A stretch of 63,768 nucleotides of DNA from assembly GCA_041569645.1 (NCBI GenBank), contig JBFFXR010000001.1, positions 1-63,768 on the forward strand, in the 5' to 3' direction. The translations under genes and the position numbers were made by a program. This stretch comes from Gammaproteobacteria bacterium (GTDB taxonomy: Bacteria; Pseudomonadota; Gammaproteobacteria; GCA-001735895). Shown piece by piece: positions 51,042 through 62,288 of this stretch. The stretch's first letter is position 1. The number at the start of each line of letters is the position of its first letter. A model generated the notes under the pieces. It was not told the DNA's origin. It made no database searches and saw only the letters and a program-made list of their open reading frames with translations.

Positions 51042-52517
51042 CTACATCGGCACCACGTCGTAGGATTCCTGGCTAAAGTGCGTTTCCACCTGTAGTTTGA
51101 CCGGAATACCGATAAAGGTTTCCAGTTCGGCGAGGCTCGCCGCCTCCTCGTCGAGCAGGCGATCGATGACGTCCTGGTTGGCCATGACCAGCAATTGCTG
51201 GGCCTCGTCATAGAGCCTGGCCTCGCGCAGGATCTCGCGGAATATCTCGTAACAAACGGTCTCGGTCGTCTTGACCGAGCCGCGGCCATGGCAGACGTTG
51301 CAGGGCTCGCACAGTACGTGCTCGAGGCTTTCGCGGGTGCGCTTGCGGGTCATCTCGACCAGCCCCAGCGGCGAAACTTCGCATACCTGGGTTTTGGCGT
51401 GATCCTTGTCGAGTTGTTTTTCCAGCGATTTGAGCACCTGGCGCTTGTGATCGTCGTGCTCCATATCGATGAAGTCGATGATGATGATGCCGCCGAGGTT
51501 CCGCAATCGCAGCTGCCGCGCGATCGCCTGCGCGGCTTCCATATTGGTGCGAAAAATGGTCTCCTCGAGATTCTGATGCCCGACGAAGGCGCCGGTATTG
51601 ATATCGATTGTCGTCATCGCCTCGGTCTGGTCGATGATCAGGTAGCCGCCGGACTTCAGGCTGACCTGGCGGGCGAGCGCACGCTCCAGTTCGTCATCGA
51701 TATTGTAGAGGTCGAACAGCGGCCGTTCGCCGGGATAGTGCTCGATCTTGGCCGGTAGGTCCGGGATGTAGCGCAGCGCGAAATTCACCATTTTCTGATA
51801 AGTCTCGCGCGAATCGACCTTGACGGCGCTGGTATCGGCGCCGACCATGTCGCGCAGTGTGCGAATCGACAGCGGCAAGTCCTCGTGGATCATCGTACCC
51901 GGCTCGACCTCGCTGGCATAGGCCAGGATCGAGCCCCACAGCTTGGACAGGAAGTTGATATCGCGCTTGAGTTCCTGTTCGTCGACGCCCTCGGCCGCGG
52001 TGCGAATGATGCAACCGCCCAGCTCGTTTTCGGCGCGGCAGGCCTCGAGCAGGCTGCGCAGCCGCTCGCGTTCGGTTTCGTCCTCGATCTTGACCGAGAT
52101 CCCGACGATCTGCGAGTTGGGCATATAGACGAGATAGCGCGACGGCACCGAGATGCTGGTTGTCAGGCGCGCCCCCTTGGTGCCCATCGGATCCTTGACG
52201 ACCTGCACCAGAACGGTCTGGCCGTCGCGCAGCAGCTCGCCGATTACCGGCCGGTTGTTGGCCTCCTCGTCGTCGCCGCCCCCGCCGACATCGATGTCGG
52301 AGACGTGCAGAAATCCGGCCTTGTCGAGACCGATATCGACGAACGCGGCTTCCATGCCGGGCAGCACGCGGTTGACCTTGCCCTTGTAGATATTGCCGAC
52401 GATGCCGCGACTGCGCTCGCGCTCGATCGAGACTTCCTGCAGCGCGCCGTTTTCGACGATCGCGACGCGGGTTTCCTGCGGCGTGATGTTTAACAGTATT
52501 TCTTCGTTGATCGTCAT
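51042..52517 (-). CDS. rng: ribonuclease G
   Basis: ATG at 52517 (MTINEEILLNITPQETRVAIVENG...), 491 aa, with an S1 domain and an RNase E/G catalytic core. The track ORF's upstream extension overlaps maf. Confidence 0.94.
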   Translation of the reverse strand: MTINEEILLNITPQETRVAIVENGALQEVSIERERSRGIVGNIYKGKVNRVLPGMEAAFVDIGLDKAGFLHVSDIDVGGGGDDEEANNRPVIGELLRDGQTVLVQVVKDPMGTKGARLTTSISVPSRYLVYMPNSQIVGISVKIEDETERERLRSLLEACRAENELGGCIIRTAAEGVDEQELKRDINFLSKLWGSILAYASEVEPGTMIHEDLPLSIRTLRDMVGADTSAVKVDSRETYQKMVNFALRYIPDLPAKIEHYPGERPLFDLYNIDDELERALARQVSLKSGGYLIIDQTEAMTTIDINTGAFVGHQNLEETIFRTNMEAAQAIARQLRLRNLGGIIIIDFIDMEHDDHKRQVLKSLEKQLDKDHAKTQVCEVSPLGLVEMTRKRTRESLEHVLCEPCNVCHGRGSVKTTETVCYEIFREILREARLYDEAQQLLVMANQDVIDRLLDEEAASLAELETFIGIPVKLQVETHFSQESYDVVPM

Positions 52518-52519
52518 GT

Positions 52520-53095
52520 TTAAAGCAACTCGATGCCGGCTTCGCGCAGCAGCTCCGCGGTTTCGAACAGCGGCAATCCCATGACCGCCGAATAGCTGCC
52601 CTCGAGACGGCGCACGAAGCACGCGGCCTTGCCCTGTATCGCGTAGGCGCCGGCCTTGTCCCGCGGCTCCTCGGACCCGCAATAAGCTTCGATTTCACGG
52701 CTATCGAGCGGCCGGAAGCTGACCCGGTTTTCCGCCAGGCGCAGTTCGATCCCGGCCTCGCTGGCCAGCGCGACCGCCGACAGTACCCGATGTTCGCGGC
52801 CGGAAAGTCGGGCGAGAATCCGGCAGCATCCGGCGGGATCGGCGGGTTTGCCGATGATATCACCGTCGAGCGCGATCGTCGTATCGGCGCCGAGAACGAG
52901 ACCCGGGGCGTCGCGCGCGGCGAGCTCCGCGGCAGCCTGTGCGGCCTTGTCACGGGCGACTCGGCAAACGTATTCATCGGGTAATTCGCCGGGCAGCCGG
53001 GACTCGTCGACGTCGACCGGGAATACCTCGAATTTCACGCCGATCTGGCGCAGCAACTCGGCGCGGCGAGGGGAACGCGAGGCGAGATAGATCAT
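52520..53095 (-). CDS. maf: Maf-family nucleoside-triphosphate pyrophosphatase
   Basis: MIYLASRSPRRAELLRQIG...; 191 aa. Confidence 0.93.
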   Translation of the reverse strand: MIYLASRSPRRAELLRQIGVKFEVFPVDVDESRLPGELPDEYVCRVARDKAAQAAAELAARDAPGLVLGADTTIALDGDIIGKPADPAGCCRILARLSGREHRVLSAVALASEAGIELRLAENRVSFRPLDSREIEAYCGSEEPRDKAGAYAIQGKAACFVRRLEGSYSAVMGLPLFETAELLREAGIELL

Positions 53096-53128
53096 GAATG
53101 GATAATAGCCAAAATCCCTGCTCGCCGC

Positions 53129-53599
53129 CTATTCGCGATGATAGGGATGCTTGTTCAGGATACTCCACGCGCGGTAGAGTTGTTCGAGCAGGACGATGCG
53201 CACCAGCGCATGCGGCAAGGTCGCCGGCCCCAGCGAAACGCGCTGCGCGCAGGCCTCGAGACAATCCCCGGAGAGACCGTCGGGACCGCCGATAACGAGG
53301 TCGACGTGCGGATGCCGCTGCATCCAGCCGGCCAGCTCGCGCGCCCAGTCGTCGCTCGACCAGGCCCGGCCGCGCTCGTCGAGCGCGAGGGCCAGACCGC
53401 CGGGGTTGAGCCGGTCGACGATCCGGCGTCCCTGCTCCTGCTTGCGCTCGGCCGGCGAGGTTTTCGCGCCACGCGGCACCAGTGGCAGGCTGACGATTTC
53501 GGGTTTGATCTCGCGCGGCAGGCGAGCGAGATATTCGTCGCAGCCGGCGTCGACCCAGGCCGGAAGTCTTTGCGCAACGCTCAGTATCCGGATGCGCAC
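53129..53599 (-). CDS. rlmH: 23S rRNA (pseudouridine1915-N3)-methyltransferase
   Basis: GTG at 53599 (VRIRILSVAQRLPAWV...), 156 aa, with a SPOUT C-terminal knot motif (SLGPATLPHALVRIVLLEQLYRA). Confidence 0.92.
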   Translation of the reverse strand: MRIRILSVAQRLPAWVDAGCDEYLARLPREIKPEIVSLPLVPRGAKTSPAERKQEQGRRIVDRLNPGGLALALDERGRAWSSDDWARELAGWMQRHPHVDLVIGGPDGLSGDCLEACAQRVSLGPATLPHALVRIVLLEQLYRAWSILNKHPYHRE

Positions 53600-53600
53600 A

Positions 53601-53963
53601 CTATGAATCCGGCGCGAGCGTTTCGCTCCAGAGTTTTTCCAGTTCGTAGTAGCGACGTACGTCGGGCAACATGATGTGAACGATGACGTCACCGAGATCG
53701 ACCAGAATCCATTCGCCGGCTTCGGCGCCTTCGACGCCCAGCGGTCGATGGCCGCGGGCATCGGCAGCTTCGACAACCGCGTCGGCAATCGCGCCCGTGT
53801 GCCGCGTCGACGTACCGCTGGCGACGATCATCGTGTCGGTGAAGCTCGCCCGCGCGCGCACGTCGAGCTCGACGATATCGACCGCCTTGAGGTCTTCGAG
53901 GGCCTGCCGCGCGAGCTGGCGAACGGCGGCCGATTCCAGCGAGACGGGCTCGGAGTCAGCCAT
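53601..53963 (-). CDS. rsfS: ribosome silencing factor
   Basis: 120 aa with the motifs FTDTMIVASGTSTRH and WILVDLGDVIVHIM. Confidence 0.92.
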   Translation of the reverse strand: MADSEPVSLESAAVRQLARQALEDLKAVDIVELDVRARASFTDTMIVASGTSTRHTGAIADAVVEAADARGHRPLGVEGAEAGEWILVDLGDVIVHIMLPDVRRYYELEKLWSETLAPDS

Positions 53964-54579
53964 CGGCGGTGCGATACAGTTGCCGGGTTTCGATGTAGTC
54001 GGCCACCTGCGGATGCAGGCAGTCCGGAGGCGGCGCCTCGCCGGCGGCCAGCGCCGCGCGAATCGCACTCGATGCGCAATCGTTGGCGTCGATGTCGAGC
54101 AGCAGGATCGCGCCGGCCGGACTCGCGGCTAACGCCGCGACCGACGCGACCCGATTATCGGCGCAGATCCCGGCATCGACGGCGACATCGGGGCGCAAAC
54201 AGACGGCGATATTCGCCAGACGCAGAATCTCGGCCGGCTCGCGCCAGCCGGCGAAGCCGTTGAACGCGTCGCCGCCGAGAATCAGCACCAGCGGGCCGGC
54301 AAGCGCCGCACGCAGCGCACGCAGCGTATCGACCGAGTACGAGGGACCGCCACGGTCGAGCTCTTGCCGATCGAGCGAAAACGCGGGCTCGTCGTCGATC
54401 GCCAGTTCGATCATCGCCACCCGATGTGCAACGCTTGCGCGCGGCGGATCGCGATGCACCGGCTCGGCACAGGGCACGAAGCGCACCGCGTCGAGCCCGA
54501 GGCGCTGCCGAACCGCCGCCGCGACGAGAACGTGGCCGTTATGGATGGGGTCGAAGCTGCCACCCAGGATACCGATCAT
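53956..54579 (-). CDS. nadD: nicotinate-nucleotide adenylyltransferase
   Basis: MIGILGGSFDPIHNGH (HxGH motif); 207 aa. Confidence 0.93.
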   Translation of the reverse strand: MIGILGGSFDPIHNGHVLVAAAVRQRLGLDAVRFVPCAEPVHRDPPRASVAHRVAMIELAIDDEPAFSLDRQELDRGGPSYSVDTLRALRAALAGPLVLILGGDAFNGFAGWREPAEILRLANIAVCLRPDVAVDAGICADNRVASVAALAASPAGAILLLDIDANDCASSAIRAALAAGEAPPPDCLHPQVADYIETRQLYRTADG

Positions 54580-54591
54580 GCGCGGGACAGG

Positions 54592-55878
54592 CTAACTGCG
54601 AATGTGGCCGTCGCCGAAGACCACGTATTTTTGCGTGGTCAGGCCTTCGAGGCCGACGGGACCGCGCGCGTGCAGCTTGTCGGTGCTGATACCGATCTCG
54701 GCGCCGAGACCGTATTCGAAGCCATCGGCAAAACCGGTCGACGCGTTGACTATCACCGAACTCGAATCGACGCGCCGCAGGAATTCGCGCGTATGGCGGT
54801 AATCGTCGCTGACGATCGCATCGGTGTGGTGCGAGCCGTAACGATTGATATGCTCGATCGCCGGTTCGAGCCCGTCGACGATGCGGATCGCGAGGATCGG
54901 CGCGAGATATTCGGCATGCCAGTCGTCCTCGCCGGCTTTCGCGATCGACGCATCGAGCGCGCGGCTGCGCTCGCAGCCACGCAGTTCGACGCCGGCGGCA
55001 CGCATCCGCGCGATAATTTCGGGCAATACGGTCGGCGCGATCGCGACGTCGACGAGCAGCGTCTCCATCGCGTTGCAGACGCCGTAGCGGCGGTTCTTCG
55101 CGTTGTCGGCGATCGCGATCGCCTTGACCGGATCGGCGGCGCCATCGATATAGACGTGACAGTTGCCGTCGAGGTGCTTGATCACCGGGATCTTCGATTC
55201 GCCGGCGATGCGCTCGATCAGCGATTTGCCACCGCGCGGAATGATCACGTCGATCGCGTCGTCCATTTGCAGCATCAGGCCGACCGCCTCGCGGTCGGGC
55301 GTGGCGACGACCTGAACCGCGGCTTCGTCGAGGCCGGCTTCAACGAGGCCCTCGCGGATGCACTGGTAGATTGCCTGATTCGAATGCAGGGCTTCCTTGC
55401 CGCCGCGCAGGATGCTGGCATTGCCGGATTTGAGGCACAGCGCTGCCGCGTCGACGGTGACGTTGGGCCGCGATTCGTAAATGATACCGATCACGCCGAG
55501 CGGCACGCGCATCTTGCCGACCTGGATGCCCGACGGGCGATAGCGCAGCTCGCTGATCTCGCCGACCGGGTCGGCCAGCGCGGCGACCTGTTCGAGACCC
55601 TCGATCATCGCGTCGATTCGCGCCGGGTCGAGTTCGAGACGCTCGGTCAGCGCCGGGCTCAGCTGCGCGCCGGCGGCGCCGGCGAGATCCTTCCGGTTGG
55701 CCTCGAGGATGAAGTCGCGGCGTGCGTCGAGCGCGCGCGCAATCGCGCCCAGCGCGGCGTTCTTCTGCTGGGGTTCGGCGTGCGCGAGAACCGCGGCCGC
55801 CGCGCGCGCGGCGAGACCGAGTTCGCGCATGTAAGCGCCGAGGTCGGCGGCGTAGTCGTCAGGTAAGGCCAGACTCAT
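54592..55878 (-). CDS. proA: gamma-glutamyl phosphate reductase
   Basis: Full-length ProA pattern ([16 protein letters not shown], catalytic CNAMETLLV). The chosen ATG at 55878 overlaps the holA 3' end by 20 nt; 55899 and 55830 are alternatives. Confidence 0.92.
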
Positions 55879-56890
55879 GGCGGTTGGTCGTTTCTCCACA
55901 AAAGCGGGTCACCAGGGAGCGGATTTCGTGCCAGTCCGCTTGCGGGAAATCGCTGCCCTCCTGACCCTTGCCAAGGCGGTCTAATTTAGCACAGCTTTGC
56001 AGCAAACGCTCGACCACCGCCGCCGGCAGGCGCCCGAGCGCGGCGCGGTACAGGCGCTGCTTGTTGCGCCAGATGCGCAGCCGTTGCCAGGTACGGTCGT
56101 CGATGCCGCCGGCGCGCTCGGCCGCCGCGAGCTCGTCGAGCTGTTCCAGCGCCGCCTGCAATGCCCAGCGCAACTGTGGCGTCGCATAGCCTTCGGCATC
56201 GAGGCTGCGCAGGATCTTGACTGCGCGCGCGGTCTGCCCGGCGAGACAGGCGTCGACCAGCAGGAAATGACTATAGCGCGACGACTGGGCGATAGAATCC
56301 TCGATCATCGCCAAATCGATGCGCGCGTCGGCGGTGAAACGGATCGACAGCTTTTCGAGCTCCTGGTCGGCGGCGAGCAAGTTGCCCTCGGTACGCTCGG
56401 CGAGGAATTGCGCCGCCTGGCCATCGAGCTCGAGCCCCTTGGCCCGCGCGCGCTCGCCGATCCAGTCAGGTAACTGGTTGTCGTATACCGGCTTCAGCTC
56501 GACGATGCGGCCGTGACTCTCGATAGCGCGAAACCACGCGGTCTTGCGCGTCGCGCGGTCGAGCACCGGGGTCACGAAAATGAAGACGTCGCCGGCGGCG
56601 ATCCGCGCGCACAGCGCTTCTATCGCTTTCGCGCCGGCGACGCCCGGCTTGCCGGTCGGCAGCGTGACGATGCGGCATTTGTTGCTCGCGAACAGCGACA
56701 GCGTATCCCTGTCCTCGAGCAGTTCGTTCCAGTCGAAACCGGCGTCGGCCTGCAGGTTCAAAATATCTTCGCAACCCGCCGCGCGCAGCGCCGCGCGCGC
56801 GTCGTCGAGCCAGTCGCGCAGCAGCAGCGGCTCGCCGCTGGCGAGCAGATAGACGGGCTGCAAATCCCGGGTGATACCGACGCCTTGCAT
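55859..56890 (-). CDS. holA: DNA polymerase III delta subunit
   Basis: N-terminal [13 protein letters not shown] and a length typical of HolA. The start is the ATG at 56890 or the GTG at 56908. Confidence 0.88.
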
Positions 56891-56930
56891 GGGCGGCAAT
56901 GCTAGCACAGAAGCGCGCTGTGGCCGGCGG

Positions 56931-56967
56931 AAAAAAAGGATCCCCGGTCACGAAGAGCGCGGGGATC
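56931..56967 (-). terminator. rho-independent terminator just upstream of holA
   Basis: The minus strand reads GATCCCCG-(13-nt loop)-CGGGGATC followed by CTTTTTTT. Confidence 0.55.
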
Positions 56968-57075
56968 GAATGATTACCTGCTATATCATCCAGCAGCTTC
57001 CTGCAAGGCTTCCTGCCTCCGATGTGGGGAGAAAGTCCTTGTACACATCTCCGTCACCCGCCTCCTTGCAGGCAC
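56931..57075 (-). ncRNA. candidate small RNA (roughly 145 nt), unclassified
   Basis: A weak promoter (TTCAGC, 18-nt spacer, TATACT; -10 at 57087..57082) precedes a 9-bp long-range stem (CCTGCAAGG/CCTTGCAGG, 56999..57007 with 57064..57072). There is an inner GGAGA/TCTCC stem, and the unit ends at the terminator above. No convincing ORF is present. Confidence 0.25.
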
Positions 57076-57154
57076 GAAATCAGTATAGCCGCCGACCGGC
57101 GCCCGGCTGAAGTCGCAGCGGAGGTTTGAGCTGTAAGCCAGGGCAAAAGCCGAT

Positions 57155-57170
57155 GTAGGATTTTTCCTAC
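57155..57170 (-). terminator. short perfect hairpin after the permease gene
   Basis: GTAGGA-AAAA-TCCTAC lies 22 nt after the stop, followed by ATCGGCTTTTGCC. The stem is weak and AU-rich. Confidence 0.3.
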
Positions 57171-57192
57171 AATTTCCGGCCTACGCGGCGAA

Positions 57193-58404
57193 TCAGACGT
57201 CGCGCAGCCCGTCCGACGGCTGGATGCGAGCCGCGCGCAGCCCGCCGAGTATCGCCGCGTAGATCGCGATCAGGACGGTCAGGCCGAGCGCCCAGAGGAA
57301 ATGCTCGGTCAGCAGAAAGCAGAGCTTGCGGTCGATGTTCAGCGTCGGCGCGAGCACGTGGTTGATCAGGTGCTCGAATACGAGGTAGATCAGCACCGCC
57401 AGCAGCCAGCCGAGAAACGCGGTGTAGCAGGATTGCAGCACCGGGAACAGCACGATGCGGCCGCTCTTGAAACCGATCAGGCGCAGGATACTCAGATCCT
57501 TGCGTTTGCGGTCGACGTTGGCCCACAGGCTCGCACCGAGCGAAAACGAGAAACCCAGCGCGCCGACGCAGGCGATGATCCAGAAAATCACCGACAGGTT
57601 GCGGTCGATCGACTGCACCGTGTCGATCTCGGCGACGTTGGCCTTGACCCGCACGCCCTCGCGCTCGAGATCCTCGACCAGCCGCGTGACGTCGTAGATC
57701 GATCGCGCGTAGAGCCGGAAGGACGGGAAGCTGCGCGCCCCGGCCGTCGCCGAGTTGCCGCTCCAGCCGAGTTCGGGCACCGCCCGGCCATCCTTGAAGT
57801 GTTCGCTGGCGATCAGCAGGTCGAGGTGAACGAAGGCCACGTTGCGCGGCGTCACGCCGGGATCGGCCACGCTGATCACGGTCAGCGGCAGGTGCACGCG
57901 CTCGCGTTTGCCGCGAAACTGGCGCGCGAGGCTGCCGTCGATACGATCGCCGGCGGTAATCTCGAGGCGTTTGGCGGCGCTCGCACTGAGTACGACCTCG
58001 TAGTAGTTGGCCGGCGCGCGCAGGCCGCTGCCGAGCAACGGATCGCCCGCTGCGGTCGCCAGCAGTTCGGTCGACAGGATACGCCTGGCGGTGTCGCTCT
58101 TGAGCTGAATCGTCGCCGCCAGCGCGCGCGTTTTCGGGATGATGAACTCGACGTCTTCGCGCGCGCGCAGGCGCTCGATCCAGGCATCGTCGTAACTGCC
58201 GCTGCCGATCGGCCGAATTTCGCGGTTGATCGGGTTTTCGACCAGATCGGCGATCATCGTGCTGACGACACCGAACTTGAGGCCGAACAGAATCATCATC
58301 GGCGCCAGCACCGAGGCCAGCGCGAGTACGAAACAGCCCGACATGCGCCATTCGTGGCTGTAGTCGCGAAAACTCAGGCGGACGATGTTGGTGATCTGCG
58401 CCAT
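57193..58404 (-). CDS. MacB/FtsX-type ABC permease (four TM segments with a large periplasmic loop)
   Basis: The ATG at 58404 overlaps the ATPase stop. TM1 spans about aa 22 to 47, followed by a hydrophilic loop of roughly 220 aa and three C-terminal TMs. An FtsX-like stretch (KRKDLSILRLIGFKSGRI) is present; 403 aa. Confidence 0.8.
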   Translation of the reverse strand: MAQITNIVRLSFRDYSHEWRMSGCFVLALASVLAPMMILFGLKFGVVSTMIADLVENPINREIRPIGSGSYDDAWIERLRAREDVEFIIPKTRALAATIQLKSDTARRILSTELLATAAGDPLLGSGLRAPANYYEVVLSASAAKRLEITAGDRIDGSLARQFRGKRERVHLPLTVISVADPGVTPRNVAFVHLDLLIASEHFKDGRAVPELGWSGNSATAGARSFPSFRLYARSIYDVTRLVEDLEREGVRVKANVAEIDTVQSIDRNLSVIFWIIACVGALGFSFSLGASLWANVDRKRKDLSILRLIGFKSGRIVLFPVLQSCYTAFLGWLLAVLIYLVFEHLINHVLAPTLNIDRKLCFLLTEHFLWALGLTVLIAIYAAILGGLRAARIQPSDGLRDV

Positions 58405-59129
58405 CAATCGCAAAAAGTCGACTGGTAGATCTTGCCGTCGTCGACCGGCTCGGCAACCTGGTTCAAGGTACGTAAATCCATTTTGTAGACGTGATGCCAG
58501 TCGTGGCTCGCGGTGATCAACGTGATCTTGAGCCCCTTGATGACCTCCATGACGACCGCCATGATCTTCTGGGTCGTGATCGGGTCGAGGGTCGCGGTCG
58601 GCTCGTCGGCGATCAGGATCGACGGCCGGTGCGACAGCGCGCGGGCGAAAGCCGCGCGCGAGCGCTCGCCGACCGACAGGTAGCCCGGTAGCTTGTCGAG
58701 CTGGCGCTGAATGCCGAGCACTTTCGATATCGATTCGATCGAGTCGTCGTCCGGCAGGTTCAGCAGCCGCCGCGGCAGTTCGATATTTTCGCGCACGGTC
58801 AGGTACGGTAGCAGGCCGCCCGATTGCAGCACGTAGCCGATGTGGCGCTTGCGGATTTGCGACAGGGGGCCCTGGCGATTGCGTTGCCACATATCGGCGA
58901 CATCGCTGTTGTCGCCATCGATCGGGTGCAGGTTGAAATCCTCGGAGTCATCGGGACGCAGAATCAGCGCCAGCATGTCGAGCAAGGTACTCTTGCCACA
59001 GCCGCTGTGGCCGATCAGAGCGATGTTTTCCTGCGCGCGAATCTCGATCTTCGGCACGCACAGGCGAAAACCGACGCCGTCGTTCAGCCGTTCCTTGACG
59101 ACGTTCCTGAGCGTATAGATGATCGACAC
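58404..59129 (-). CDS. ABC transporter ATP-binding protein
   Basis: GTG start. Motifs are Walker A GHSGCGKST, Q-loop GYVLQ, signature variant LSVGERSR, Walker B ILIADEPT and H-loop ASHD. Confidence 0.9.
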   Translation of the reverse strand: MSIIYTLRNVVKERLNDGVGFRLCVPKIEIRAQENIALIGHSGCGKSTLLDMLALILRPDDSEDFNLHPIDGDNSDVADMWQRNRQGPLSQIRKRHIGYVLQSGGLLPYLTVRENIELPRRLLNLPDDDSIESISKVLGIQRQLDKLPGYLSVGERSRAAFARALSHRPSILIADEPTATLDPITTQKIMAVVMEVIKGLKITLITASHDWHHVYKMDLRTLNQVAEPVDDGKIYQSTFCD

Positions 59130-59138
59130 CGCCGTAAG

Positions 59139-61094
59139 TCAGGGCAGCAGGTCGAGGGCGACCGGAAATACCGAGTTGCCGTTGACCGGCCCGCCGCCGG
59201 GCGTGACCCACAGGTCGGTATGGTCGTGCAGCGCCTGGTAGTAGTTGATCTTGCTTTCGAGGCGGTGCATGAACTCGATTTGCACCTTGGCCGACCATTC
59301 TTCCCAGGACTCCAATGTCAGGTTCATGACCTCGCCGGTATACGGCAAATCCTCGATGTATTCGCGCATGTAGCCCATGTCGGCGAGATTGCCGCCCGCC
59401 CCGGACGTGCTCGCGGCGACCGCCGACGGATCGCGGCTGACCGTTGCCGCGAGGCTCTTGAGATCGTCGATGAAATTTTGCGGGCTCAGCACGCCTTCCT
59501 CGGCGAGTTCGAGCACCTGCTGCATGACGTTTTTCAAATCGGAGAGCTGATCGCGCGTCAGCAATACGCGGACGTCGACCGCCGAGCGTTCGGGTTTGAG
59601 AAAGTCGCGATCGACCATCCACGCGTCGAAGACCTTGGGCAGCGGCGCGCCGCGTTCTTTCTGGATGTAGCGCATGCGCAGCGCATTGCCCAGCTTGGCG
59701 ACGCGATCCTGCAATTGCGCGAGCTGGGACTCGCCAGCGTCGCGTTCCGGCAGCGGCAGCGGCGGAACGCCGTTGGTCGTCGCCAGCACCTGCTGGGTAA
59801 TCTGGTTGGCGAGCACTTCGAGCACGGTGCCGAACTCGTCGACCTGGCCGAGGCTGACGCCGTAGTAAAAATCACCGATACCGGGGTAGTACGAAACCTG
59901 CTTGTAGAGCTGCTCGGCCAGCTCGTGGTCGGCGGACTCCGACGGCGTGCGCAGGTGCAGCACCCAGACCGAAACGCCCTTGTCGTAGGCGAGCTGGCGC
60001 AGCGCTTCGGCCGACAGGCGCGTCGCGCCCAGCGAATCGTGACTTTCGCGCGGCCCGGCGTCGGTAATCAGCACGACATAGCGCGCGTCGAATTTTTCCC
60101 AGTCGGTGTCCTCGATCGCCGAGCGGATCCCGGCGTAGGCATCCTCGCGAAAGTCGCGACTGGAAATTTCGGCCGGTTTCAGCGCATTGACGTTGGCGAA
60201 GAAGGTTTTGACATCGGTGCCCTCTGCGAGACTGACGTAGCGACGCGTCAGGTACTCGAGCTCGGGAACCATATCGACGTTGTCGCGATAGGCGGTCAGC
60301 CCGAAGCTCACCTGGTTGGTCAGGCCCTGTCGCTCGATCGCCGCGTAGACTCGCGCTACGGCTTCGCGCGTACGGTCGATGTACGGCCCCATCGACTGCG
60401 TCGAGTCGATGACGAAATGAATCCCGCTGCGGTAGCTGCGTGGCTTGGCGTCGGGCGCCGACAGCTTGCCTGCCGCGTCGCTGTCGTCGAGCGGCACGCT
60501 GGCGATCTCGAGCAGGCGCGCCTGCTCGTTGCCGAGATAGACGTCTTCGTGCTGCTTGATCGGCACGAGGTAGAAATTCTCGCGGATCTCGAGGTGCGCC
60601 TCGGGCTGGATCGCGATTACCGGCGAGTCGGGCGGCGGGCTGCCGCTGACGACCGCGTTGTAGAGCGCCTGGTAGCCGATCTTGTCGTATTTCGTCACCA
60701 TCCGTTCGAGCGCGTCGCGCTCGCCGAACATCATGACTCGCTGGATGTCCTGCGGGTCCTTGAACGACACGGTCAGCGCCGTATTCCACTCGATCGCCTG
60801 GTCGCGGCGGATCCAGCCGGCGATCCGGCCGACGCTGTCGTAGCCGACCTCGAGCCAGTCGCTGCCCTTGTCGTAGACGTAGAGCACGCTGAAAGGCACG
60901 ACCTCGCTCGATGTCGCGGTGTCGGTCGGCGACTCGTAGAGCCGCGCCTCGGGCACGCTCAGGACTCGCTGGTAGAGCGATTTCTTGCCCTCCATCAACA
61001 GCGGTTTCTCGCCCGCAGCGAGCGGCGTCGCCAGACAGGAACACAGCAGGAACAGGAATGCGGTGGCGCGCGGTAATCTGCCGGAGCGCTGCAT
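59139..61094 (-). CDS. secreted von Willebrand factor A (MIDAS) domain protein with N-terminal SH3b-like and C-terminal unknown domains
   Basis: The ATG at 61094 follows AAGGTGA. There is a signal peptide (ATAFLFLLCSCLATPLAAG). MIDAS residues are D230-S-T-Q-S (60407..60393), later TAYRD and ITDAGP; 651 aa. Confidence 0.8.
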   Translation of the reverse strand: MQRSGRLPRATAFLFLLCSCLATPLAAGEKPLLMEGKKSLYQRVLSVPEARLYESPTDTATSSEVVPFSVLYVYDKGSDWLEVGYDSVGRIAGWIRRDQAIEWNTALTVSFKDPQDIQRVMMFGERDALERMVTKYDKIGYQALYNAVVSGSPPPDSPVIAIQPEAHLEIRENFYLVPIKQHEDVYLGNEQARLLEIASVPLDDSDAAGKLSAPDAKPRSYRSGIHFVIDSTQSMGPYIDRTREAVARVYAAIERQGLTNQVSFGLTAYRDNVDMVPELEYLTRRYVSLAEGTDVKTFFANVNALKPAEISSRDFREDAYAGIRSAIEDTDWEKFDARYVVLITDAGPRESHDSLGATRLSAEALRQLAYDKGVSVWVLHLRTPSESADHELAEQLYKQVSYYPGIGDFYYGVSLGQVDEFGTVLEVLANQITQQVLATTNGVPPLPLPERDAGESQLAQLQDRVAKLGNALRMRYIQKERGAPLPKVFDAWMVDRDFLKPERSAVDVRVLLTRDQLSDLKNVMQQVLELAEEGVLSPQNFIDDLKSLAATVSRDPSAVAASTSGAGGNLADMGYMREYIEDLPYTGEVMNLTLESWEEWSAKVQIEFMHRLESKINYYQALHDHTDLWVTPGGGPVNGNSVFPVALDLLP

Positions 61095-61104
61095 GGAAGT
61101 CACC

Positions 61105-61695
61105 TTAACGATAAATGAGAAGCAATTGCGCCGCGTCGGCATCGCCGGCTTCGGCAGCGGCCTGCGCCCAGTGGCGCAACGCGTCGACCCGCGCGCCCGC
61201 ATCCGGATGGCCGAGATCAGCGGCCTTGCGATACCACTTGTGGGCCTGAACCGCATCGGCCTCGTCGAGCAGCGAATCGGCGGCTTCGAAGCGAGTCGGG
61301 TCGGCCATTTCGCCGAGCGTCATGATCGCCGGCAGGTAATCCTCGCGCGCGGCGAAGAAATACAGCAGATGGGCGTCGGCGAGACTGCCCTCGGCAAGAT
61401 GCCGGCCGGCGCGGGCGAAGACTTCTTCGAGCGGGTACGGCTTGCCGGCAGCGCGCATCCGGTCGATGTATTCGCGCGCGTGCATGCCCGGGGGCACCAG
61501 CAGGTTGCGATCGATCGTGTCGGAGGTGGATGATTCGGGATTTTCGACCAGGGTCGCACTGGTTTCGCCCCGATCGCCACTGAGAATGACGAAGACGATG
61601 AGGCCCGCGATTACGGCCGCGATCCCGATCAGCGGATTGATGCGGCGTTGCCGCCGGCGCGCCGCGCCGTTTTCCGGTTCAACTGGTGATGGCAT
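61105..61695 (-). CDS. membrane-anchored Sel1-like repeat protein
   Basis: A positively charged N-terminus (ARRRQRR) precedes one TM (INPLIGIAAVIAGLIVFVILSG). Sel1-like motifs follow (LYFFAAREDYLPAIMTLGEM; AHKWYRKAADLGHPDA). Confidence 0.7.
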   Translation of the reverse strand: MPSPVEPENGAARRRQRRINPLIGIAAVIAGLIVFVILSGDRGETSATLVENPESSTSDTIDRNLLVPPGMHAREYIDRMRAAGKPYPLEEVFARAGRHLAEGSLADAHLLYFFAAREDYLPAIMTLGEMADPTRFEAADSLLDEADAVQAHKWYRKAADLGHPDAGARVDALRHWAQAAAEAGDADAAQLLLIYR

Positions 61696-61763
61696 GGGAC
61701 ATACTAAATTCGCTCAGCTCCGTGTTCGGCTTTGGTGTGTCGATTAGGGTCCCAGTTCGGGCG

Positions 61764-61792
61764 ATTATAAACGCTTGTTGGCGGCCGGTAAA
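61764..61792 (-). promoter_or_regulatory. sigma70-like promoter for the Sel1/vWA/ABC unit (TTTACC, 17-nt spacer, TATAAT)
   Basis: On the minus strand TTTACC occupies 61792..61787, an exact 17-nt spacer follows, and a perfect TATAAT occupies 61769..61764. It starts 2 nt after the lptE stop and lies about 70 nt upstream of the Sel1-like ATG. Confidence 0.5.
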
Positions 61793-61793
61793 T

Positions 61794-62288
61794 TCAGATT
61801 CGGCCTAATTGGAAAATTAATTGCTCGAAGAGCGATTTTTCCAGCTCGACGAGCAGGTTCGCGCGCTCCTCGTTGGATGCCAGCAGGTTATCCTCGTCGC
61901 GGGTGAAATCCCGTTGCCGGGTCAGGGTCTTGGCCTCGATCAGCGGCTCGCCGTCTGCGCCGACCAGGCTGAAGCGCAGGCTGCGGGTAAGCCGCTCGAT
62001 GGTCTTGCCGCTGCTGCCGCCGGCGACGAGATCCCTGGCCGGAACGTTCAGGAAACTGACCCGCAGCAGCGTCGCGTCGGCATCGCCCTCGCCGGCAAGC
62101 AACGCGCCGGCCCGCTCGAGGCGCGCGCGCAGGGCCTTGCGCTGGCGCTCGCTGAAATTGTCGGTTTCGAGCCGGATCAGTTCGAGCGAATCGGCCAGCT
62201 CGGCGGTGCCGGCGAGACGAAAGCCGCAGGCCGCAAGCGCCAGGCACAGCACCAACAACGCGACCCGGCAAGTGACGGCTCGCGACAT
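61794..62288 (-). CDS. lptE: LPS-assembly lipoprotein LptE
   Basis: The ATG at 62288 lies 2 nt after the leuS stop. It has a lipobox LALAAC-G, is 164 aa, and sits in the conserved leuS-lptE order. Confidence 0.85.
   Translation of the reverse strand: MSRAVTCRVALLVLCLALAACGFRLAGTAELADSLELIRLETDNFSERQRKALRARLERAGALLAGEGDADATLLRVSFLNVPARDLVAGGSSGKTIERLTRSLRFSLVGADGEPLIEAKTLTRQRDFTRDEDNLLASNEERANLLVELEKSLFEQLIFQLGRI

Follow-up and report, generated by a model that had tools for sequence, protein, structure and literature searches.

The TagQRST-PpkA system of the Pseudomonas aeruginosa H1 type VI secretion system (H1-T6SS) is the textbook case of bacterial sensing of outer-membrane attack. More generally, ATP-binding cassette (ABC) systems of the MacB, LolCDE and FtsEX type transmit ATP-driven movements to periplasmic domains and partners, and von Willebrand factor A (vWA) domains with a metal-ion-dependent adhesion site (MIDAS) use a metal ion for ligand binding and change their affinity by allostery. 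Here, we compare with these systems a quartet of minus-strand genes located between lptE and holA on a 63,768-nucleotide stretch of DNA from a Gammaproteobacteria bacterium (assembly GCA_041569645.1, contig JBFFXR010000001.1, positions 1 to 63,768 of the forward strand); the whole stretch is referred to below as the 63.7-kb window. Six-frame listing and translation of its open reading frames gives the quartet as a compact operon (57193-61695), made up as follows:

61105-61695, minus strand: Sel1-like anchor gene (196 aa)
59139-61094, minus strand: vWA gene (651 aa)
58404-59129, minus strand: ABC ATPase gene (241 aa, GTG start)
57193-58404, minus strand: FtsX/LolC-type permease gene (403 aa)

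TagQRST-PpkA responds to outer-membrane damage, including the depletion of bamA, lptD or tolB, and is also triggered by polymyxin nonapeptide and by puncture in atomic force microscopy, while the identity of the sensed signal and the way in which the ABC pair communicates with the vWA module of PpkA remain open questions (PMC7817224; PMC11881912). A second relative, a cassette of a Lol-like ABC pair, a vWA protein and an FGE protein, has been noted earlier to be linked to srfABC, without an assigned function (PMC3608642; 2026 bioRxiv preprint).

From sequence comparison, we have high confidence that the quartet is homologous to, and should be classified with, the PpkA/TagTS and srfABC-side envelope modules, and a function of its own, maintained by selection, is also quite likely. 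Our preferred reading, which we regard as probable, is that the quartet is a reduced, autonomous variant of this envelope module, in which a type VII ABC mechanotransducer would act on a tethered MIDAS protein.

Kinship with PpkA, TagT and TagS

An exhaustive search of 1.84 billion representative proteins with the window vWA protein returned 1327 relatives, 483 of them below 1e-30 and almost all aligned over the full length. Most are about 650 aa long, and a few reach about 1000 aa. Residues 23-651 of the window protein align with residues 406-1028 of a 1028-aa relative (P0167; E 1e-103) that has an N-terminal Pkinase domain and is encoded in a Fha-TssJ-TssK-TssL-TssM-TagF-PppA cluster; the kinase domain and the T6SS gene cluster together identify P0167 as a T6SS PpkA. 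The gene of a further kinase form (P0134, at locus L052) is followed by those of an ABC ATPase, a permease of the FtsX type and a TagR-like protein, and the published T6SS arrangement ppkA-tagT-tagS-tagR, as well as the COG classes of TagS, TagT and TagR, agree with this locus. According to the literature, TagS is LolE-like (COG4591) and TagT is LolD-like (COG1136). The ATPase and permease adjacent to ppkA at L052 are 48% and 44% identical, respectively, to the window pair over the full length and stand in the same order, their labelling as TagT and TagS resting on synteny rather than on the P. aeruginosa sequences. Since full-length homology and gene order coincide, these comparisons argue firmly that the vWA-ATPase-permease trio corresponds, by homology and synteny, to PpkA (its periplasmic part), TagT and TagS, with the kinase missing.

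The likeness to TagQRST-PpkA thus covers the three-domain periplasmic vWA module, the vWA-ATPase-permease order, and the pairing of a LolE-like permease with a LolD-like ATPase. In contrast, the window has no Hanks kinase, no TagR (FGE-sulfatase fold), no TagQ lipoprotein, no Fha or PppA and no T6SS genes. Furthermore, the window vWA protein is secreted and soluble, whereas the vWA module of PpkA is anchored by a transmembrane (TM) segment of its own, and the window has an additional gene for a TM-Sel1 anchor that canonical PpkA lacks. Searches with tblastn found no kinase, TagR, TagQ, Fha, PppA, TagF, TssM or other T6SS gene in the 63.7-kb window, none of the four quartet proteins has a Pfam match to Pkinase, and Fha, PppA, TagF and TssM were not found in the related loci surveyed either.

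An initial annotation of this DNA, made from its letters and open reading frames, had stated that no characterised system of such composition was known. This does not hold, since the trio matches ppkA (periplasmic part)-tagT-tagS and there is also a match in the srfABC-side cassette. The possibility raised there, that the genes or their orthologs would turn out to belong to a characterised system, came true as far as homology is concerned, but not as regards membership, because the kinase, TagR, TagQ, Srf and T6SS genes are missing.

Subfamilies and the Srf-linked cassette

Subfamilies were defined in a metagenome scan with the family alignment and by neighbourhood clustering, those with vWA proteins at least 45% identical to that of the window being assigned to subfamily I and those at 42% or below to subfamily II; gene counts were taken from 50 loci with at least 4.5 kb of sequence on both flanks. 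Subfamily I consists of the Sel1-vWA-ABC-FtsX quartet; its well-flanked loci have the complete set in 27 of 27 cases, and TagR, kinase, Srf and T6SS genes are absent from every one. Subfamily II is a longer operon with the order SrfA-SrfB-SrfC-X-vWA-ABC-FtsX-FGE sulfatase, where X is an anchor protein; TagR-like genes and Srf genes each occur in 20 of its 23 loci and a kinase in 2 of the 23. This subfamily is also found on plasmids of cultured bacteria, namely in 114 Klebsiella (Klebsiella pneumoniae) plasmid records and on pENTE01 of Enterobacter sp. 638.

Anchor X consists of a cytoplasmic N-domain, a proline-rich linker, one TM segment and a C-terminal periplasmic domain that is homologous to the Sel1 domain of the window anchor (hhalign 98.7%, E 2.6e-16). 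The srfABC cassette and the window share the four core components in identical order, with the anchor gene directly upstream of the vWA gene, and the cassette vWA protein is likewise stand-alone, secreted and about 650 aa long, with 37-38% identity to that of the window. They differ in that the window has neither Srf genes nor an FGE-sulfatase gene, in that its anchor is without the cytoplasmic N-domain of about 110 aa, and in that sequence identity between the two is only 27-42%.

The pENTE01 locus (L134; 567-17134) reads VWA-SrfA-SrfB-SrfC-hypothetical (X)-vWA-ABC-FtsX-SUMF1/FGE and has three hypothetical genes in addition. The carriers of this sister Srf operon are conjugative and other plasmids of cultured enterics.

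Two loci contain what may be described as a 'split PpkA' (L096, 5931-7946; L095, 5122-7131): a 671-aa protein in which a Hanks kinase is joined to the N-domain of X, a TM segment and a Sel1-like domain, its C-terminus being 42% identical to residues 105-192 of the window Sel1 protein. The gene lies downstream of SrfB and SrfC and is followed by genes for a separate secreted vWA protein, the ABC ATPase, the FtsX permease, an FGE-sulfatase, a Gly-zipper protein and a trypsin-like protease. The kinase is thus carried by the vWA module in PpkA and by the Sel1 anchor in these loci, which argues, as evidence of the Rosetta-stone type, that the anchor and the vWA protein probably work together, in one complex. 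Nature has in effect performed three fusion experiments (kinase on vWA, kinase on the Sel1 anchor, and no kinase), which together predict which proteins touch. Among the 21 longest proteins of the top 150 representatives (50%-identity clusters), only two have a Pfam kinase domain, and forms that carry a kinase and are linked to a T6SS make up only a small part of what is a large family.

One other long relative (P0124, 1041 aa; L051, 667-3792) has an AAA_22/AAA_16 ATPase domain N-terminal to the vWA module, in place of the kinase. No ABC/FtsX pair is found downstream of its gene, whose neighbours are moaC/moaE and ilv genes.

Taken across these loci, the four constants of the family are a bitopic Sel1 protein, which canonical PpkA lacks, a three-domain MIDAS vWA protein, a LolD-like ATPase and a LolC/FtsX-like permease. 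The sister systems have a cytoplasmic Hanks kinase or other domain on the anchor or vWA protein, plus TagR, whereas the window has a 21-residue cytoplasmic tail and no TagR.

A rough neighbour-joining tree of ATPase and permease was rooted on E. coli LolD/LolC; it lacks support values, and its outgroup branch is long. In this tree, subfamily I forms one clade nested in the TagTS-like family, near the T6SS-linked and kinase-anchor forms, and the lptE/holA group forms a single sub-clade among quartets sited elsewhere. This topology fits one ancient insertion and an architecture that is reduced rather than ancestral. The idea that the quartet is the ancestral core of the family was dropped, because the rough tree nests the quartet inside it.

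Age and conservation of the locus

As the initial annotation had it, leuS, lptE and holA are contiguous in E. coli K-12, with lptE and holA overlapping by 1 nt, so the window quartet interrupts a conserved arrangement. In order to follow the quartet in relatives, one genome per species was scanned, which yielded 49 loci. As far as their contigs reach, all of them contain the four genes in unchanged order. Where vWA identity is 66-95%, the quartet lies between leuS-lptE and holA-proA-nadD, and where it is 48-54%, which includes metagenome-assembled genomes (MAGs) labelled Sedimenticola, the quartet lies elsewhere among unrelated neighbours. When the context changes, co-conservation is limited to the four genes. 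Co-occurrence of the quartet, one of the two matters left to a neighbourhood survey, is constant (27 of 27 well-flanked loci), but a position at lptE/holA is not.

The lptE/holA position is common to 43 loci, in which holA itself is down to 47-85% identity. Across these 43 syntenic loci, the median identity to the window is 79% for the vWA protein, 77% for the ABC ATPase, 77% for the permease and 77% for leuS, compared with 61% for holA, 52% for Sel1 and 46% for lptE. In other words, the vWA protein, ATPase and permease evolve as slowly as leuS, and Sel1 evolves faster. With such slow evolution and so diverged a holA at a shared site, the module is, judged from these identities, old at lptE/holA and under strong purifying selection, and neither a hotspot passenger nor a recent island. 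The initial annotation had described the quartet as an old, domesticated insertion without signs of mobility; the 43 shared sites and the single clade on the rough tree bear out the first point, and the second is upheld in that there is no integrase at the quartet, no compositional (GC) break around it, and no flanking direct or inverted repeat beyond chance-level matches.

The four proteins

The Sel1-like protein starts with a 21-aa basic cytoplasmic tail, followed by a single TM segment (residues 22-40; 61576-61632) that makes it bitopic according to hydropathy, a variable linker, and a Sel1-like periplasmic repeat domain (residues 66-196; 61108-61500). Its Pfam Sel1 match (5e-4) is under the curated cutoff. 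The family profile, searched against the PDB, matched five Sel1-repeat proteins (best 1.3e-7), the AlphaFold2 (AF2) model is a helical repeat with a predicted local distance difference test (pLDDT) score above 95 over residues 70-196, and its top Foldseek neighbours are Sel1-repeat proteins, weakly matched (best E 0.02). Profile and predicted fold together confirm the 196-aa protein as a member of the Sel1-like repeat (SLR) proteins.

The vWA protein has a type-I signal peptide (residues 1-28; 61011-61094), an N-terminal beta domain (30-200; 60495-61007), a Rossmann-like vWA/MIDAS domain (223-440; 59775-60428) and a C-terminal helical/beta domain (457-651; 59142-59726). A MIDAS-like motif is formed by D230-S-T-Q-S234 and D345, of which D230-x-T-x-S234 and D345 are conserved family-wide. 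The Pfam VWA match (4e-4) is under the curated cutoff, and PDB sequence searches with the single sequence and with the family profile gave no match, so that the fold was recognised by structure comparison only: in a Foldseek search with the AF2 model (42-sequence family alignment; mean pLDDT 83.8), the central domain matches integrin I domains and the vWA domain of SpaC, a pilus-tip adhesin.

The mature N-terminus of the vWA protein, KPLLMEGKKxLYQRVL (residues 30-45; 60960-61007), is nearly invariant down to about 30% overall identity, and such strong conservation suggests that it may serve as a docking peptide. We also considered that the vWA protein might be a lipoprotein and a Lol-type substrate, given an LLCSC match in the window. 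This was rejected, as a lipobox is present in only 28 of 120 close homologues and 8 of 116 representatives; the type-I cleavage site precedes the invariant KPLLMEGKK motif, which also counts against a lipoprotein.

The ATPase is of the LolD/TagT type (Pfam ABC_tran 8e-25; best NCBIfam matches including YbbA, LolD and FtsE), and its catalytic motifs are intact, i.e. Walker A (G40-T48), Q-loop (Q103), signature LSVGER (151-156), Walker B (D175-E176) and H-loop (H209). The permease has a Pfam FtsX match of 3e-9, above the cutoff, four hydropathy-derived TM segments (24-42, 272-290, 317-335 and 361-379) and a periplasmic loop of 229 aa (residues 43-271; 57592-58278). Its family profile matches LolC best in the PDB (2.5e-12), then LolF, LolE, YtrF, MacB and FtsX, with coverage of TM2-TM4 only. 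With an FtsX domain, four TM segments, a large TM1-TM2 loop and an intact ATPase, the pair can be classified from these features as a type VII (MacB/LolCDE/FtsX) ABC system.

The domain assignments of the initial annotation have accordingly fared well. The ABC ATPase and FtsX-type permease calls rest on the Pfam matches given, the vWA call is borne out by the AF2 model and its integrin I neighbours where Pfam falls below cutoff, and the Sel1 call by the family profile and, weakly, by the Foldseek result. The topology proposed there, with most of the non-ATPase mass facing the periplasm, agrees with the Sel1 TM segment, the vWA signal peptide and the permease loop, which had been put at about 220 aa.

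Comparison with other ABC and vWA systems

LolCDE and LolDF, the best solved-structure matches to the permease, share with the quartet the type VII architecture, namely a separate ATPase and a four-TM permease with a large periplasmic TM1-TM2 domain, the similarity being confined to TM2-TM4. Unlike them, the window module always comes together with vWA and Sel1 proteins, and no lipoprotein substrate is evident. A housekeeping LolCDE was rejected as an identity for the pair, with NCBIfam scores of 24.8 bits against a cutoff of 362 for TIGR02212 (LolCE) and 110 against 308 for TIGR02211.

FtsEX-EnvC and MacAB-TolC offer a working analogy, in that the ATPase cycle of the quartet would likely reshape a periplasmic partner with no substrate crossing the inner membrane. 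The partner is a coiled-coil amidase activator or a membrane-fusion protein (MFP) in those systems, but a MIDAS vWA protein and a Sel1 anchor in the window. MoxR-vWA pairs and the Bat (BatA-E) operon likewise bring together, in the envelope, vWA/MIDAS proteins and repeat proteins of the TPR/Sel1 type, whereas the energy source in the window is an ABC ATPase, and no sequence kinship beyond the vWA fold was found. The initial annotation had remarked on the absence of MFP and outer-membrane factor (OMF) partners and of a MoxR ATPase. Indeed, none of the four products, which fill the operon between lptE and holA, contains an MFP or OMF domain, and the sole ATPase of the operon is ABC-type and not a MoxR AAA+ ATPase.

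An anti-phage defence system was also considered and discarded, as a PADLOC scan gave only generic ABC/P-loop matches.

Operon structure and transcription signals

The features that surround the quartet are:

61794-62288, minus strand: lptE, upstream flank, outside the module (Pfam LptE 2.2e-8; synteny)
61764-61792, minus strand: promoter-like element TTTACC-17 nt-TATAAT in the lptE/Sel1 intergenic region (10/12 consensus matches)
57155-57170, minus strand: weak A/T-rich hairpin GTAGGAAAAATCCTAC, about 20 nt past the permease stop (sequence reading; present in the minimum-free-energy fold)
56931-56967, minus strand: intrinsic-terminator-like hairpin GATCCCCG...CGGGGATC followed by T7, just upstream of holA (sequence and folding)
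55859-56908, minus strand: holA, downstream flank, outside the module (NCBIfam holA 2e-66; synteny)

The Sel1 and vWA genes are separated by 10 nt and the vWA and ATPase genes by 9 nt, and the ATPase stop and permease ATG overlap by 1 nt (ATGA), exactly as first described. The Sel1 stop codon was likewise found where it had been placed, embedded in TAAGGTGA upstream of the vWA ATG, the proposed Shine-Dalgarno sequence of the vWA gene.

The promoter-like element begins 1 nt past the lptE stop, and not 2 nt as initially annotated; its presence was correctly seen. A single match of this kind is not significant alone, as a consensus scan gave 2 sites in 5.6 kb compared with 1.1 expected. Against a diverging intergenic background, at least 21 of 33 syntenic loci nevertheless retain both the element and the spacer motif ACAAGYGTT. 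The segment ACAAG(C/T)GTT lies directly upstream of TATAAT and is conserved both in the window (61764-61792) and in the homologous intergenic regions of loci L001-L078; it could be a candidate regulator-binding site overlapping the promoter.

At the other end, the 287-nt spacer between permease and holA (56909-57195) has a more stable fold than shuffled versions of it (z = -3.2), and its length ranges from about 120 to about 970 nt across related loci. Terminator-like hairpins had been noted past the last gene, and both a weak one (57170-57155) and, at the end of the spacer, a much better one with T7 (56967-56931) are present. Rfam returned nothing credible for non-coding RNA in the spacers (best E 0.36), and the 287-nt spacer had no Rfam match. 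In sum, the gene packing, the promoter and the terminators are consistent with the single compact transcription unit that had been proposed.

Proposed mechanism and alternatives

In the preferred reading, the Sel1 anchor would tether the secreted vWA protein to the inner membrane, next to the permease, and ATP binding and hydrolysis by the ATPase would be relayed via the permease periplasmic domain, as in MacB, LolCDE and FtsEX. The ABC cycle would toggle the vWA/MIDAS domain between ligand-binding states; alternatively, ligand-bound vWA protein would gate the ABC cycle. The ligand may be a molecule that appears in the periplasm upon outer-membrane perturbation. As the quartet has no cytoplasmic signalling domain, the output is probably local to the periplasm and might consist of ligand capture, extraction, hand-over, or control of a periplasmic partner, with no phospho-signal. 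That a four-gene version without a signalling domain is held under leuS-like constraint argues that the ABC, vWA and anchor core is active in the periplasm in its own right.

The specific toggling mechanism is put forward tentatively. It is equally speculative to view the quartet as a self-sufficient, ATP-powered, integrin-like periplasmic switch, in which a LolC-like ABC pair toggles the Sel1-tethered MIDAS vWA protein. If true, such a switch would capture or hand back an outer-membrane-derived molecule, and would thereby maintain or repair the envelope without phosphorylation; the T6SS damage sensor and the Srf-linked cassette would then amount to this machine with a reporter domain added, and the minimal quartet would reveal the long-sought signal of TagQRST-PpkA. 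A kinase-less version of a famous damage sensor, located next to lptE and conserved like an aminoacyl-tRNA synthetase, is unexpected and provides comparative leverage. Furthermore, since the Srf-linked sister operon resides on plasmids of cultured Klebsiella and Enterobacter, the core mechanism is testable in tractable hosts.

Several observations weigh against the preferred reading. With the quartet clade nested in the family, the output domain seems to have been lost, and another part of the genome could encode an output partner. The adjacency to lptE is lineage-specific, and a link to lipopolysaccharide is only suggestive, because the quartet sits elsewhere in the Sedimenticola-like MAGs. 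For the periplasmic Porter/Sabre (MacB_PCD) fold, the window permease has no Pfam match, and that of a 37%-identical homologue (2.4e-4) is below the cutoff. Finally, all 49 loci are from MAGs of uncultured Gammaproteobacteria.

The first of these points leads to an alternative that we consider unlikely, namely that the quartet is a sensor with a trans-acting output, which detects envelope perturbation just like TagTS-PpkA but passes its signal to a kinase, a two-component system or another transducer elsewhere in the genome. By analogy to BceAB with BceS, the route could run through the ABC complex in the membrane. The sister systems, which carry a kinase or other cytoplasmic domain on the anchor or vWA protein, speak for it, and the nesting of the quartet clade among them on the rough tree suggests that an output domain was lost or split off. 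However, no kinase or transducer was found in the 63.7-kb window or within at least 4.5 kb of the 27 well-flanked subfamily-I loci, and only the four quartet genes are co-conserved across changing contexts.

It is rather improbable that the quartet serves Lol-like or MacB-like export or trafficking, whether by extracting or expelling a lipoprotein, a lipid or a peptide, or by moving the vWA protein itself toward the outer membrane or the surface as a metal-dependent adhesin, with Sel1 as assembly adaptor. In its favour, LolC, LolF and LolE are the nearest relatives of the permease with a solved structure, the 2026 preprint proposes that the Srf-linked homologues take part in trafficking of the LolF type, and the structural neighbours of the vWA domain include pilus-tip adhesins. 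Yet the signal peptide of the vWA protein is an ordinary type-I one, its lipobox is unconserved in close homologues and representatives alike, the operon is without an MFP, OMF or LolA/LolB-like gene, and the LolCE score is far below its cutoff. In addition, PpkA has its vWA module permanently fused to an inner-membrane kinase, so that the module functions at the inner membrane there. The reading of the quartet as accidental cargo, i.e. an inert or recently acquired island in an lptE-holA insertion hotspot, which draws on its interruption of a locus contiguous in E. coli, is effectively refuted by the presence of the same four genes in 43 loci with a holA only 47-85% identical, the leuS-like pace of three of the four genes, the conserved promoter, and the lack of integrase, flanking repeats and GC break.

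Neighbouring genes

Downstream of the module, the window has the housekeeping order holA-proA-nadD-rsfS-rlmH-maf-rng (51042-56908). In this lineage, proA is inserted between holA and nadD, in comparison with holA-nadD-cobC-rsfS-rlmH in E. coli.

At five loci (L049, 7050-9251; also L045, L046 and two further loci), a gene encoding 729-733 aa is divergently transcribed just upstream of the quartet. The L049 member, the sole one scanned, matches Pfam DUF748/YhdP, of the AsmA family. This neighbour occurs in a branch with the quartet outside lptE/holA, and provides another, lineage-restricted, link to outer-membrane lipid homeostasis.

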